Positions 16,070 through 56,611 of a stretch of DNA of 64,000 nucleotides are shown here, piece by piece. Each line of letters starts with the position of its first letter. The first letter of the stretch is position 1. The position numbers and the translations under genes are program-made. The stretch covers positions 340,263 through 404,262 of the forward strand of contig CAMYVW010000001.1 in NCBI GenBank assembly GCA_947302655.1. Reading direction: 5' to 3'. The DNA is from an uncultured Mycoplasmatota bacterium (lineage in GTDB: Bacteria > Bacillota_I > Bacilli_A > RF39 > UBA660). The notes under the pieces were generated by a model. That model was not told the origin of the DNA, ran no database searches, and worked only from the letters and a program-made list of their open reading frames with translations.

Positions 16070-17299
16070 ATGAAGAAGAAATATTTTGTTATTGCTTCAA
16101 TTATATTAACACTTTTTTTAATTGTATTAATTGTTATTCTAACAAATCATAAAAGTGAAATAATACCTAAAATCGTAGTTAAAAATGGTTTATCTATAAA
16201 CTATCTTGATGGTGATGAACTTTATGCATCAAATAGAGAAAATAAATATACTTTTTCTGTTACTAATGATAGTGATTTAGATAAATATTATCAAATAGAC
16301 ATTGAAGATATTAATAAACCTGATGGTGTTAATATTTTAATTAAATGTAATGAAACTAACACTAATAAGAAAATCACTGATTTATCAATGGGTAGTTTAG
16401 TTGATTATGCAGTTATAACACCTGGTGAAACTCATACATATATTCTTACAGTAAGTCCAATTTTAACAAGTGTTAAAATTGGAAGTATAAATATAAATGA
16501 ATATACTTTTTCTAATGAATACTTTGCTCAAACTATAATATCAAATAGTACTATATATCAAAATCCTCAAACAACTGTTGGTGTAGAAACATCTATTAAT
16601 GATGAAGGTTTAATACAAGATATTGATGATTATGGATCAACATATTATTTTAGAGGTGCATCCACTAACAATTATTTTAAATTTGCAGATAATATGTGGA
16701 GAATAGTAAGAATAAATGGTAATAATACTGTTAAAGTAGTTCTTGATTCAGCAACTGAAAATTTATCTACATATTATGATGAAGTATCAAACAATTATTT
16801 CAAATATACTAATTCTAATATAAAAAAGAATTTGGAAAGTTGGTATGAAGAAAATCTTCGTCAATACGATAAATATATTGCAAGTTCAAAAGCTTGCGAC
16901 TATACCCTTTATACTGGAACAGATGAATATATTTTTGAATCTAGTCAAAGATTAGAGGTTAATCATGCCCCAACATTTAATTGTTTAGGTAATAAAGTTA
17001 ATGCAAAAATTATGCCTCTTACTGCTGATGAAGTAGAGTATGCTGGAGGATTAATAGGTGTTAGTAATACCAACTATTATTTATATAATGAAAATATAAC
17101 TAATCCATCATGGACAATTACTCCTGCTAGAGGTAATCAAAATGAGTATTATCCATATGTTATTGGAACAACAGGTCAGATAGAATCAACTTCTATTGGT
17201 AATCAAACAAGAGCTTTAAGACCTGTTATAAATATAAATAAAAAGGTAAGCGTTACCGGAAAAGGTACATATGATAACCCATATCAAATTTCTGAGTAG
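16070..17299 (+). CDS. Membrane-anchored surface protein (DUF6273-like C-terminal domain)
   Basis: N-terminal TM; YYFRGASTNNYFKFADNMWRIVRING and ALRPVININK..GKGTYDNPY segments; family assignment from memory. Confidence 0.55.
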   Translation: MKKKYFVIASIILTLFLIVLIVILTNHKSEIIPKIVVKNGLSINYLDGDELYASNRENKYTFSVTNDSDLDKYYQIDIEDINKPDGVNILIKCNETNTNKKITDLSMGSLVDYAVITPGETHTYILTVSPILTSVKIGSININEYTFSNEYFAQTIISNSTIYQNPQTTVGVETSINDEGLIQDIDDYGSTYYFRGASTNNYFKFADNMWRIVRINGNNTVKVVLDSATENLSTYYDEVSNNYFKYTNSNIKKNLESWYEENLRQYDKYIASSKACDYTLYTGTDEYIFESSQRLEVNHAPTFNCLGNKVNAKIMPLTADEVEYAGGLIGVSNTNYYLYNENITNPSWTITPARGNQNEYYPYVIGTTGQIESTSIGNQTRALRPVININKKVSVTGKGTYDNPYQISE

Positions 17300-33987: not shown

Positions 33988-34765
33988 GTTACTTATATTA
34001 GTTCAAAACAAATCATTAATTAATAAAGTAAAGAAAGTAGATAAAGCTACTTTTCTTTTTCCACTTGAAGGTTATTCCGTTGGTTATCCCAACACCTTTA
34101 AATTAGATGAAATAGATGAGTTTGGTGCATATATCTTAGTTAATCGTCTTTTAGATGAATCATCAATTAATTCTTTCAAAGAATTAATTGATAATTTTCC
34201 CAAAAATATTAAAGGAATCGTTTTTGAAGATTTAGGTTTAATTGATTTAATTAAAGATTTAGACATAACAAAAATATTATGGCAAAGTCATTTAAACGCT
34301 AGTTATTTATCAATTAATGGGTTTTTAAAATATGTTGATAGTGTTATGATGTCAACTGATATAACAATTGATGAGATAAAATTAATATTAAGTAAAGCTG
34401 ATAAACCTCTTGTTCTACCTGTTTTAGGTTATATACCAGTTATGTATTCAAGAAGATACCTATTAAGTAATTTTAATATTAATTATAATGAAAATGTTTC
34501 AAATCCAAATACTATTAAAGAAGAAGTATTAAAAGATGAATTCAAAATATTTGAAAATGAATATGGAACAGTTTTATATTCAAATACTTTATATAATGGA
34601 AAAGTACTAATGGATTATGATGCATTATATTATTTTATTAATTCGGTATTTTTAAGTGATGAAGATATTATAAACTTCATTACAAATAATGAATTAAATG
34701 ATGAATATAATGATGGTTTTTTAAACAAAAAAACCATATATAAATTAAAGGATGGTGATAAGTAA
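33980..34765 (+). CDS. U32-family protein, short partner (YrrN/TrhP1-like)
   Basis: Between trmR and the U32 gene; PVMYSRRYLLSNF and GFLNKKTIYK tail; ATG 33980 overlaps the trmR end. Confidence 0.65.
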   Translation: MNKLLILVQNKSLINKVKKVDKATFLFPLEGYSVGYPNTFKLDEIDEFGAYILVNRLLDESSINSFKELIDNFPKNIKGIVFEDLGLIDLIKDLDITKILWQSHLNASYLSINGFLKYVDSVMMSTDITIDEIKLILSKADKPLVLPVLGYIPVMYSRRYLLSNFNINYNENVSNPNTIKEEVLKDEFKIFENEYGTVLYSNTLYNGKVLMDYDALYYFINSVFLSDEDIINFITNNELNDEYNDGFLNKKTIYKLKDGDK

Positions 34766-49230: not shown

Positions 49231-49254
49231 AAACCTCCATACAAGGAGGTTTTT
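49231..49254 (+). terminator. Hairpin after xseB whose 3' arm is the dinD Shine-Dalgarno
   Basis: AAACCTCC-ATACAA-GGAGGTTTTT; ATG at 49258. Confidence 0.7.
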
Positions 49255-49257
49255 ATT

Positions 49258-49764
49258 ATGGAAACAAATATTGTAGGTGCTAGTTTATTTGATAATATTA
49301 AACATATAGACGATGAAGGAAATGAATATTGGTACGCAAGGGAATTACAAAAGATATTAGATTATTCTCAGTGGAGAAGATTTGAAGATGTAATTAATAA
49401 AGCTATTACTTCTTGCAGAAATAATGAAAAAGATCCAAACTACTATTTTGCCATAGTTGGCAAAATAGTGAAAACAGGGGTTTCAACGATACAAATTAAA
49501 GATTTTAAACTATCTAGATATGCATGTTATTTGATTGCTCAAAATGGTGATCCAAGAAAGAAAATCATTTCTTTAGCTCAAAATTATTTTGTTACTAAAA
49601 CAAGAGAACAAGAACTTGAAGAATTAGTATATAAAGAAATGAGTGAAGATGATAAAAGAATATATCATCGAAATATAACTAAGAAAAAGAATTATTTATT
49701 AGATTAAACAGCACTTAAATCTGGAGTGAAGAACGAAGTAAAAAATAAAGAATTAAAACCTTAA
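49258..49764 (+). pseudogene. dinD: Truncated DinD-like (DNA-damage-inducible, Bro-like N-domain) gene
   Basis: FDNIKH..EYWYARELQKILDYSQWRRF, LSRYACYLIAQNGDPRK, AQNYF. TAA at 49705 is followed in frame by TALKSGVKN, then an early end; full-length members are about twice as long (from memory). Confidence 0.75.
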
Positions 49765-54525: not shown

Positions 54526-54604
54526 TTAAGCAATATTTTTTTATATAAAAAAAGGAAATTCACTTTTTTTCGGAAATGTATATTAGTGAAAGGAAGTGAA
54601 AATT

Positions 54605-55540
54605 ATGAATAATGAAATAATCCTATTTGAGGATCAGGATGTTAAACTTGAAGTCAGTTTAAAGGACGAAACAGTTTGGTTAAATCAAAACTCAATAGCA
54701 AAATTATTTGGCGTAGCAAGAAGCACAATAACGGATCATATTAATAATATTTTGATTTCAGGTGAGTTAGAAGAAAAAACTTCTGTCGGAATTTCCGACG
54801 AAAGTTCAGGAGGAAGAAAGCCAAAACTATATAATCTTGATATGATTATTGCTGTTGGATATAGAGTTAATTCTAAAAAGGCTACAATATTCAGAAGATG
54901 GGCAACAAATATTTTGAAAGAATATCTAATAAAAGGTTATTCAATTAATATGAAAAGACTGAAATACTTAGAAAAAACTGTACAATTAATTGATGTTGCA
55001 TCAAGAATAGAAAATGATATTGACGTTAGTGATGCCAAAGAAGTAATTCATGTTATTAATTCTTATTCAAAAGCATTTGATTTACTTGATAAGTATGATC
55101 ATAAACAAATCATAAAACCCAAAGGTAAATTAGATCTAGCAAGAATTACGTATGATGATTGTAAGAGTATTATCGAAACACTTGAATTTAACAAAACAAG
55201 TAACATTTTTGGGCTTGAAAGAGATAAAGGTTTAGAGTCAATAATCAATAATATTTACCAGTCATTTGATAATAAAGACTTATATGAATCAGTTGAAGAA
55301 AAAGCAGCAAATCTTTTATATTTAATAATAAAAAATCATCCGTTTATTGATGGTAATAAGAGAATAGCAGCTACTATATTTGTCTATTTTTTAAGTTTCT
55401 ATAAAATATTATATGATAATGATGTATTGAATATTAATGGTAAAACTTTAGTAGCCTTAACGCTTCTTATTGCTGAATCTAATCCTAAAGAAAAAGAAAT
55501 AATGGTAGATTTAGTTATGAATCTTTTAATTAATAATTAA
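54605..55540 (+). CDS. RhuM-family DNA-binding domain fused to Fic/Doc domain
   Basis: ETVWLNQ..IAKLFG, YNLDMIIAVGYRVNS..ATIFRRWA, then AANLLYLIIKNHPFIDGNKRIAA. Confidence 0.9.
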   Translation: MNNEIILFEDQDVKLEVSLKDETVWLNQNSIAKLFGVARSTITDHINNILISGELEEKTSVGISDESSGGRKPKLYNLDMIIAVGYRVNSKKATIFRRWATNILKEYLIKGYSINMKRLKYLEKTVQLIDVASRIENDIDVSDAKEVIHVINSYSKAFDLLDKYDHKQIIKPKGKLDLARITYDDCKSIIETLEFNKTSNIFGLERDKGLESIINNIYQSFDNKDLYESVEEKAANLLYLIIKNHPFIDGNKRIAATIFVYFLSFYKILYDNDVLNINGKTLVALTLLIAESNPKEKEIMVDLVMNLLINN

Positions 55541-55618: not shown

Positions 55619-56611
55619 ATGAAAAAGAAACTATTTATATTATTAATATCATTTTTATTTCCTCTTTCTGTATGTGCTTATTCAGATAAAATAATACCTG
55701 GAGGGGGTACAATAGGTATAAAAGTAAATTCTAAAGGCATTATGATAGTTGGTTTTTACAAAGTTGATGGAAAATATAATAAAGGTAATCCCGAATTAAA
55801 AGAAGGGGATTATATAATCAAAGTAAATGATGAGAAAATTAATAGTGTTGATGATTTAATTAATGCAGTAAGTAAATATCAAAATGATGAATTAGTTAAT
55901 ATAACTTATTTAAGAAATAAAATAGAAAACAATACAAACTTAAGATTAGTAAAAATTGATGGGGTTTATAAAACGGGATTATATGTTAAAGATTCTATAA
56001 CAGGTATAGGAACTTTATCTTATATTGATCCAGAAAATAATATCTATGGAGCTCTTGGTCATGAAATAGTTGAGTCAAATAGTAAAGTAATGATAGATAT
56101 AAAGGATGGAACAATATTTAAAAATATTGTAACTAGTATAGAGCGTAGTGTAGACGGAAGTCCCGGAAGTAAGAATGCTAAGTTTTATAATAATAAAGAA
56201 TATGGTAATGTTTTAAAAAATACGAAGTATGGTATATATGGTATTCCTAATCAAAATATATTAACTGGGGAACCAGTTAATATAAAAAAATTAAGTGAAG
56301 TGAATTTAGGAAAAGCATATATAAGAACAGTAATAAACAAAGAAGATGTAAAAGACTATGAAATAAATATTCTTGAAATAAATAAAAACAGTAAACTTAA
56401 GAGTATAACTTTTGAAATAACAGATGAAGAACTTTTAAATAAAACAGGTGGAATAGTTCAGGGAATGAGCGGAAGTCCAATAATTCAAGACGGATATTTA
56501 ATAGGAGCTGTAACACACGTATTAGTTGATGATGTTAAAAAAGGATATGGAATAAGTATTATAACAATGTTAGATGAAGGAGATAGAATATTAAATAAAA
56601 TTAATGATTAA
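55619..56611 (+). CDS. SpoIVB-type PDZ serine peptidase (S55)
   Basis: IIPGGGTIG, PDZ (EGDYIIKVND), GIGTLSYID, ALGHEI, GGIVQGMSGSPIIQDG, GAVTHV. Confidence 0.9.
   Translation: MKKKLFILLISFLFPLSVCAYSDKIIPGGGTIGIKVNSKGIMIVGFYKVDGKYNKGNPELKEGDYIIKVNDEKINSVDDLINAVSKYQNDELVNITYLRNKIENNTNLRLVKIDGVYKTGLYVKDSITGIGTLSYIDPENNIYGALGHEIVESNSKVMIDIKDGTIFKNIVTSIERSVDGSPGSKNAKFYNNKEYGNVLKNTKYGIYGIPNQNILTGEPVNIKKLSEVNLGKAYIRTVINKEDVKDYEINILEINKNSKLKSITFEITDEELLNKTGGIVQGMSGSPIIQDGYLIGAVTHVLVDDVKKGYGISIITMLDEGDRILNKIND

Follow-up and report, generated by a model that had tools for sequence, protein, structure and literature searches.

The window analysed here, a stretch of 64,000 nucleotides with 26.5% G+C from an uncultured Mycoplasmatota bacterium, carries a dinD-like open reading frame (ORF; Table 1) whose product is a member of the Bro-N domain family. 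Residues 13-104 match Pfam PF02498 at 1.6e-10, and the 41.9 bits of this match lie above the Pfam gathering score of 25.6. The curated profile for DNA damage-inducible protein D (NF008573) scores 172.7 bits and is covered over positions 11-150 of 288 only, which is below the cut-off of 242 bits for a full-length DinD. PADLOC relates the DinD-like protein to the candidate defence families PDC-S13 and PDC-S05. In two genomes of the same genus, the corresponding position between xseA/xseB and proS is occupied by intact genes of 270-290 aa; relative to these syntenic orthologs, the window's copy has acquired a TAA at codon 150 and has lost about 313 nt of its 3' part. By this comparison it is a truncated ortholog, which is probably decaying. 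The same 1.04-Mb genome contains a second, intact DinD paralog of 275 aa, which reaches 338 bits with NF008573 and shares 50% identity with the copy in the window.

The ribosome-binding site of the dinD-like ORF, AGGAGG, sits within a terminator-like hairpin that separates the gene from xseB. This position, together with the conservation of the hairpin in the same-genus loci, suggests a possible translational masking of the ORF. The hairpin was also the sole report of a terminator scan of the locus; the promoter-like and terminator-like sites upstream of the ORF are consensus matches only.

Table 1. Features discussed in the text. Positions refer to the window, except where a contig or a homologous locus is named.
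Feature	Position	Strand	Remarks
Perfect inverted repeat (12-15 bp) in ORF of secreted protein	16456-16483		
Perfect inverted repeat (12-15 bp) in ORF of U32-like protein	34162-34192		
Terminator-like hairpin AAACCTCC..GGAGGTTT	49231..49252	+	3' of xseB; kept in two same-genus orthologous loci
dinD-like ORF	49258..49707	+	149 aa; Bro-N domain and beginning of helical region
In-frame dyad	49442..49469	.	12 perfect pairs in this copy; encodes Y63-V71 (YFAIVGKIV)
Left arm, central dinucleotide, right arm in family frame	49442-49454, 49455-49456, 49457-49469		13-bp arms; dinucleotide free
Codons 64-73, beta-hairpin	49447..49476	+	AlphaFold2 model, mean pLDDT 85.3
Read-through remnant TALKSGVKN	49708..49735	+	9 residues after the TAA, still homologous to intact orthologs; ~313-nt deletion beyond
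RhuM-N/Fic-Doc fusion gene	54596-55540		PADLOC PDC-S23; HPFIDGNKR motif
RhuM-N/Fic dyad AACTTCTGTCGGAA-T-TTCCGACGAAAGTT	54778..54806	.	12/14 pairs; in frame; same codons as RhuM dyads
Perfect inverted repeat (12-15 bp) in ORF of SpoIVB-like peptidase	56257-56284		
Second DinD paralog	C1:498254-499072		Own, different dyad
Free non-coding dyad, 5' of start codon	L029:2439-2466		
Free non-coding dyad, 5' of start codon	L112:1431-1458		
Free non-coding dyad, 5' of start codon	L220:496-523		
Free non-coding dyad, past stop codon	L090:2316-2343		
Free non-coding dyad, past stop codon	L239:1536-1563		

Inside the dinD-like ORF we found the inverted repeat ACTATTTTGCCA-TAGT-TGGCAAAATAGT, which is in frame and has perfect 12-bp arms around a 4-nt centre, just as the first-pass annotation of this DNA had reported. 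Its axis coincides with the codon boundary ATA|GTT, and codons pair across this axis as TAT with ATA, TTT with AAA and GCC with GGC, corresponding to the residue pairs Y-I, F-K and A-G. Folded as single-stranded DNA, the repeat reaches -11.7 kcal/mol (z = -5.7 against shuffles). It does not have the form of an intrinsic terminator, a G+C-rich stem with a T run behind it, being followed by GAAAACAGGG, and an Rfam search gave no relevant match around it. On the AlphaFold2 model, the encoded peptide, whose structural mapping had been proposed in the first-pass annotation, forms a beta-hairpin with a strand at residues 64-66, a turn at 67-68 and a second strand at 69-73, the dyad axis lying one residue ahead of the turn. 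The dyad is thus predicted to code for a wing-like beta-hairpin that follows the helical core. No solved structure matched by sequence or, with Foldseek, by fold, and the second beta-hairpin of the same domain is devoid of a palindrome.

For comparison, the site was codon-aligned in a set of 240 loci, which comprised 80 loci from genomes of many phyla, 80 from viral contigs and 80 from metagenome contigs. Five loci (L013, L043, L045, L061 and L069) have in-frame stops within well-aligned dinD matches; with L061 labelled Mycoplasma, some of these stops may be TGA codons read as Trp (code 4) and others may mark pseudogenes. The set bears out a statement of the first-pass annotation, namely that DinD homologs vary in this peptide while the DNA remains palindromic. 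Over 202 distinct 36-mers, scored with 13-bp arms and a free central dinucleotide, the mean Watson-Crick pairing was 11.39 of 13, as compared to 8.15 (SD of the mean 0.08) when synonymous codons were resampled from each gene's own codon usage and 8.56 when right arms were permuted among sequences. The observed pairing exceeds these controls by more than 30 standard deviations, a clear excess over codon-shuffled sequences, the lack of which the first-pass annotation had named as grounds for dismissing its proposal. At least 11 of 13 pairs are formed at 79% of the 202 sites; only 19% are perfect, and the mean is 1.6 mismatches. In 150 sequences, 90.3% of cells were paired versus 73.9% after shuffling, with none of 500 shuffles reaching the observed value, while slid registers left 30-52% of cells paired. 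Two-sided changes, the compensatory pattern that the first-pass annotation had suggested looking for, occurred in 12 of the 13 pairs (329 cells).

The symmetry is confined to this site. No other centre within the first 420 nt of dinD homologs shows comparable pairing, and the dyad has a sharp outer edge: pairs 1-4, which lie outside it, and the central pair 18 are complementary no more often than by chance, though one synonymous change would lengthen the stem. The outer arms are conserved (CATTTT/AAAATG) and coincide with conserved H-F and K-M codons, whereas each arm is free to vary over its inner 5 bp, with complementarity kept. Among three same-genus dinD orthologs, for which codons 50-80 are the least conserved stretch of the gene, arms differ at 7 of 9 positions (TATTTTGCC versus CGACTTACT), and each dyad is 12/13 paired. 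The intact paralog of the window's genome likewise possesses a dyad of its own, ATCATTTTGCGTTGTACCGCAAAATGAT, with GCG/CGC replacing GCC/GGC; a search of this genome for further copies of the dinD-type dyad returned the two dinD paralogs only.

These exchanges follow a reverse-complement code that is visible at the protein level. Residues at paired positions swap as H/M, Q/L, Y/I, A/G, V/D, P/R and W/P, and in an alignment of 120 homologous proteins the couplings H..M, Y..I, Q..L, N..I, A..G, V..D, V..N, P..G and A..R all correspond to reverse-complement codons. Examples of paired changes are runs of three codons, such as CAT TTT GTC..GAC AAA ATG, CAA CTT GTT..AAC AAG TTG and TGG GTT GTT..AAC AAG CCA, and single codon pairs (TCC..GGA, CCT..AGG, GGT..ACC, GAT..ATC, GCG..CGC, TGT..ACA). 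The choice of third positions follows the first base of the partner codon, with GAC opposite GTx and GAT opposite ATA, and with GCC/GGC, GCG/CGC and GCT/AGC as matching sets. The 28-bp dyad is a family-wide, DNA-level and sequence-independent element that overrides amino-acid identity in the wing hairpin. Of the interpretation given in the first-pass annotation, the part that places the symmetry at the nucleic-acid level while the residues change holds, but the functions it listed (an operator, a recombination or hairpin site, a diversification device) are not established.

The type of pairing distinguishes DNA from RNA. For synonymous third positions in the stem, we compared observed codons with the expectation from codon usage, given the partner base. 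Watson-Crick-making codons were observed twice as often as expected, both over the 202 sites (1324/666 observed/expected, 2.0) and over 49 clusters at 70% identity (316/158, 2.0). Codons making G·T were strongly depleted in the two sets (57/334, 0.17, and 12/80, 0.15, respectively), as were those making A·C (40/177, 0.23; 12/44, 0.28) or other mismatches (97/341, 0.28; 26/84, 0.31), with ratios of 0.7-1.35 for control pairs outside the stem. Phylogenetic non-independence inflates the dyad counts, and the 49 clusters give the same ratios. G·T wobble is shunned in the stem as strongly as any other mismatch. Moreover, pair 17, which adjoins the 2-nt centre, is A-T in 155, T-A in 14 and G-C in 11 cases versus 9 G-T and 9 A-C, with covariation at Fisher p = 1e-7 and 8e-19 (kinship ignored); a hairpin cannot close on a 2-nt loop. 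Wobble avoidance and the retention of pairing up to the 2-nt centre argue for a constraint on the strict Watson-Crick two-fold symmetry of the DNA and not on RNA-type pairing. Such strict symmetry could mean that both strands fold, that a symmetric reader recognizes the site or that one arm is copied from the other.

Perfect inverted repeats are not restricted to the dinD-like gene. With arms of at least 12 bp and loops of up to 10 nt, the window contains 15 of them, as opposed to about 0.25 in Markov shuffles. The majority lie between genes, but ORFs contain three besides the dinD dyad (Table 1), so that the first-pass annotation erred in seeing nothing comparable in the housekeeping coding sequences. 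The excess of coding inverted repeats may indicate that quasi-palindromes are actively being perfected in this AT-rich, 1-Mb genome. Two of the three, those in the genes of the U32-like protein and the SpoIVB-like peptidase, are unconserved: in 25-30 relatives, including members of the same genus, 2-9 of the 12-15 pairs are formed. Their absence from same-genus relatives indicates that these two palindromes are young. In this lineage, perfection alone does not keep a coding palindrome in place.

Comparable dyads recur in related families. All 22 sampled RhuM genes (PF13310) have their own covarying in-frame dyad, with 13-bp arms, a 1-3-nt centre and a location about 200 nt into the ORF, and a RhuM-N/Fic-Doc fusion gene in the window has one as well (Table 1). 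Among nine canonical Bro-N genes, five possess a covarying dyad with 9-10 of 12 pairs, encoding the equivalent hairpin in a different codon phase, and four have none. The dyad of Escherichia coli dinD is degenerate, with only 10 of 13 pairs. In E. coli O6:H16 M9682-C1 (L361, 4011211-4013201), two dinD genes lie in tandem, both with this same 10/13 dyad.

Family-type dyads also occur outside the reading frame. The flanks of the 240 loci contain extra copies, some of which lie within adjacent paralogs or gene fragments (L015, L026, L039, L062), and about 9 of the 240 loci have a free-standing dyad without flanking dinD homology. Five of these free copies are located 35-80 nt 5' of the start codon (L003, L029, L112/L194 and L220), at a distance of 234-280 bp from the internal copy, and four directly past the stop codon (L090, L147, L238, L239). 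The free non-coding dyads are 11-13/13 paired, and their inner 12 nt are unlike those of the gene's own copy. L220 is the sole gene of the set that is almost wholly without an internal dyad (2/13), and it has a copy with 12/13 pairs 262 nt upstream.

Accessory genes of the DinD/Bro-N type sit in defence islands, type I restriction-modification (R-M) operons and prophages. Neighbours of dinD include hsdM (3 of 10 upstream ORFs), hsdS, DUF1016/YhcG, reverse transcriptase, T5orf172, an AbiEii-like ATPase and integrases, besides housekeeping genes; tyrosine integrases adjoin dinD in 2 of 20 sampled loci. Milman et al. 2023 (PMC9881135) place RhuM, DUF1016 and dinD inside type I R-M loci, and the passages of that paper dealing with these three leave palindromes unmentioned. 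The first 142 positions of the PADLOC profile PDLC03083 (Specificity_I, 717 positions) match the DinD N-domain at 5e-34; hence, fusions of this domain with HsdS appear to exist. Between phyla, dinD genes share 86-92% nucleotide identity, which ends at the gene borders, about 200 nt before and 620 to 760 nt after the dyad. The dinD genes of Acholeplasmataceae, Peptoniphilus, Veillonella and Sphaerochaeta (L046, L056, L057, L058 and related loci) show 86-90% DNA identity, spanning about 200 nt before to about 660-730 nt after the dyad, with sharp borders and no obvious vehicle. Since cross-phylum identity stops at the gene borders, dinD moves between phyla as a single gene, and the transfers of the L046/L056/L057/L058 type are recent. 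An all-against-all blastn comparison of the 240 loci at 85% identity or more found no homology end at the dyad. At this identity level, the dyad was dropped as a candidate point of segment swapping.

Several explanations for the dyad have little probability in our view. To chance, or to a by-product of beta-hairpin protein constraints, we assign practically none: the genome is AT-rich, and alternating polar and hydrophobic residues have complementary second codon positions by the genetic code, but synonymous resampling that preserves every residue stays far below the observed pairing, and third-position choice tracks the partner's first base. The resampling rules out an explanation by the beta-hairpin protein alone. 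It is improbable that the dyad is an intragenic operator bound by a dimeric, sequence-specific regulator (DinD or some other repressor) and working as a roadblock or by looping to a partner site at the promoter. The dyad symmetry, the conserved outer half-sites ACCATTTT/AAAATGGT, the free copies ahead of a few start codons and the DNA-binding domain encoded by the gene would all suit an operator. Yet a fixed protein specificity neither requires nor explains inner arms that vary and still stay complementary, promoter-side copies exist in only about 5 of 240 loci (~2%), and the outer arms coincide with the H-F and K-M codons, which confounds their conservation. Slightly less probable still is an mRNA hairpin that lies within the coding sequence and regulates translation of the dinD transcript, its stability or its processing. 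A covarying 12-13-bp stem is the classical signature of RNA structure, the predicted stem is stable, and every member has the dyad some 190 nt into its ORF. However, G·U-making synonymous codons fare no better than those making A·C or transversion mismatches, and neither the G·U tolerance nor the unpaired loop of at least 3 nt expected of a cis-regulatory RNA hairpin is found; complementarity runs as far as the centre, whose 2 nt in DinD and 1 nt in RhuM are too few for a hairpin to use, and symmetry is retained where non-coding copies lie ahead of promoters or past stop codons. A recombination site, be it an attC-like or hix-like crossover or cassette boundary or a hot spot for swapping allele segments, is very improbable. 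Its 13+2+13 geometry resembles the crossover sites of serine recombinases, and hix-like sites have 13-bp arms around a 2-bp core; dinD travels between phyla as a single gene, some dinD genes are adjoined by fragments or tandem copies and some by integrases, and the dyad region is the least conserved among same-genus orthologs. Against this, homology ends cluster at gene borders with none at the dyad, there is neither a conserved recombinase half-site sequence nor a recombinase gene among the ORFs listed beside the window's dinD-like gene, and the stems, being perfect, lack the extrahelical bases found in attC.

A weightier contender, which we nevertheless regard as doubtful, is a functionless quasi-palindrome that perpetuates itself, in that template switching copies one arm onto the other and mutations are either reverted or spread to both arms. 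Such a repeat would survive where the protein tolerates change, as in the wing hairpin, whose amphipathic pattern makes second codon positions complementary. The dyad displays the hallmarks of template switching: its near-perfect arms flank a short spacer, are strictly complementary without favouring wobble and are conserved more than chance predicts. The equal avoidance of all mismatch types, G·T included, fits copying and not thermodynamic selection, and stability of a structure would by itself be insufficient, as a real hairpin or cruciform would leave the centre-adjoining pairs open. Pairing that reaches into the centre, inner arms without sequence preference, the persistence of the dyad in the truncated gene, in gene fragments and in non-coding copies, the surplus of perfect coding inverted repeats in the window and published precedent (PMC5941160, PMC8794818, PMC6649704) all point the same way. 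A generic process of this kind would, however, be expected to preserve similar inverted repeats too, and the two coding palindromes of the window that we followed are not common to the genus. E. coli, the best-documented host of template switching, leaves the 10/13 version uncorrected in both tandem copies, and near-identical dinD pairs that differ at the dyad, few as they are, show single uncompensated changes. The same domain's second beta-hairpin has no palindrome, and copying leaves unexplained the recurrence in defence-linked families, the position of free copies by start and stop codons, and L220.

We prefer the reading that the dyad is selected as a cis-acting DNA feature that is read by its structure or two-fold symmetry and not by its base sequence, with a function that is putative; we put its probability at roughly 45%. 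Selection is favoured by the failure of the window's two other coding palindromes to be retained in relatives, by the sharp edges, by the recurrence of dyads in RhuM and canonical Bro-N genes, by free copies at gene starts and ends that stay paired, by the L220 gene with its upstream copy in place of an internal one, and by same-genus orthologs that have replaced most of their arm bases and kept the symmetry. Counted against it are the low share of perfect dyads, the degenerate E. coli version and the canonical Bro-N genes without a dyad. The selected feature might take the form of a cruciform, of a hairpin on either single strand or of a symmetric site, and its most plausible reader would be a structure-specific binder, possibly the Bro-N domain itself. 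Template switching, as templated copying from arm to arm, would probably still be the source of many of the paired changes, and selection and copying may act together. In the window's gene, which has lost its 3' half, the dyad would then either be maintained without the full protein or reflect a recent truncation. A bolder version, which we consider unlikely, holds that DinD/Bro-N and RhuM genes carry a selected, structure- or symmetry-read DNA site in their own wing-hairpin codons, with the encoded domain as putative binder or with a role in sensing single-stranded DNA or stalled forks. If so, a protein and its cis-target would be inherited as one unbreakable unit, and a DNA requirement would dictate part of the protein.

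At six to eight positions of a domain that is widespread in bacteria and phages, nucleic-acid symmetry, and not protein function, decides which residues are used, and the reverse-complement code can be read directly from protein alignments, pairing H with M, Q with L, A with G, V with D or N and P with R. If the dyad is selected, it would be an undescribed cis-element common to genes of type I R-M operons, defence islands and prophages, and would open a way into the poorly understood roles of the DinD, RhuM and Bro-N proteins. Should the dyad be purely self-correcting, it would show with unusual clarity how template switching has moulded protein evolution in nature over deep time. Either way, the dyad calls for caution in covariation-based discovery of RNA structures and in coevolution-based prediction of protein contacts, where such couplings would be misread. 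Our literature searches found no published description of a dyad in dinD, RhuM or Bro-N genes, and the two tests that speak for DNA over RNA, on wobble and on the centre pair, are new here.

Known systems share single traits with the dyad. Structured cis-elements in coding RNA, such as the picornavirus cre and the cis-regulatory hairpins of Rfam, likewise have a covarying stem inside an ORF, whereas the dinD dyad is intolerant of wobble, is paired to its centre, has copies that look non-transcribed and is without an Rfam match. The intragenic operators and cis sites lac O2, gal OI and parS within parB/spo0J are also dyad-symmetric sites embedded in coding sequence, and some dinD loci have a second copy near the promoter. 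These sites are conserved in sequence because a protein reads their bases, while in the dinD dyad the inner arms are free and only complementarity is conserved. The cruciform-forming inverted repeat of ColE1 has 13-bp arms and is thus of similar arm length; palindromes of this type need exact two-fold symmetry on both strands, a demand that would account for G·T and A·C being tolerated equally poorly in the dyad. Unlike the ColE1 repeat, the dinD dyad is coding, is conserved by covariation across a gene family and is a candidate for extrusion only.

The closest parallels are found among repeats shaped by copying. Coding palindromes in Nematomorpha, for which template switching has been proposed (2019, PMC6649704), are also perfect inverted repeats within functional coding sequences, in which codon degeneracy keeps the pairing and a conversion mechanism is suspected. 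They are up to 284 bp long, scattered, and gained or lost between species, whereas the dinD dyad is short, belongs to accessory genes and is fixed in position and length across bacterial phyla. In bacteria, template switching corrects and conserves short inverted repeats (Lavi et al. 2018, PMC5941160), it is able to create and maintain stems (Monttinen and Loytynoja 2022, PMC8794818), and quasi-palindrome mutagenesis has been described as well (PMC7202029). With such template-switched bacterial repeats, the dinD dyad shares perfect or near-perfect arms, a short spacer, conservation among orthologs above chance, paired changes and the lack of a wobble preference. Unlike them, it is fixed at the same codons throughout its family and across phyla, where it forces amino-acid changes upon the encoded protein.
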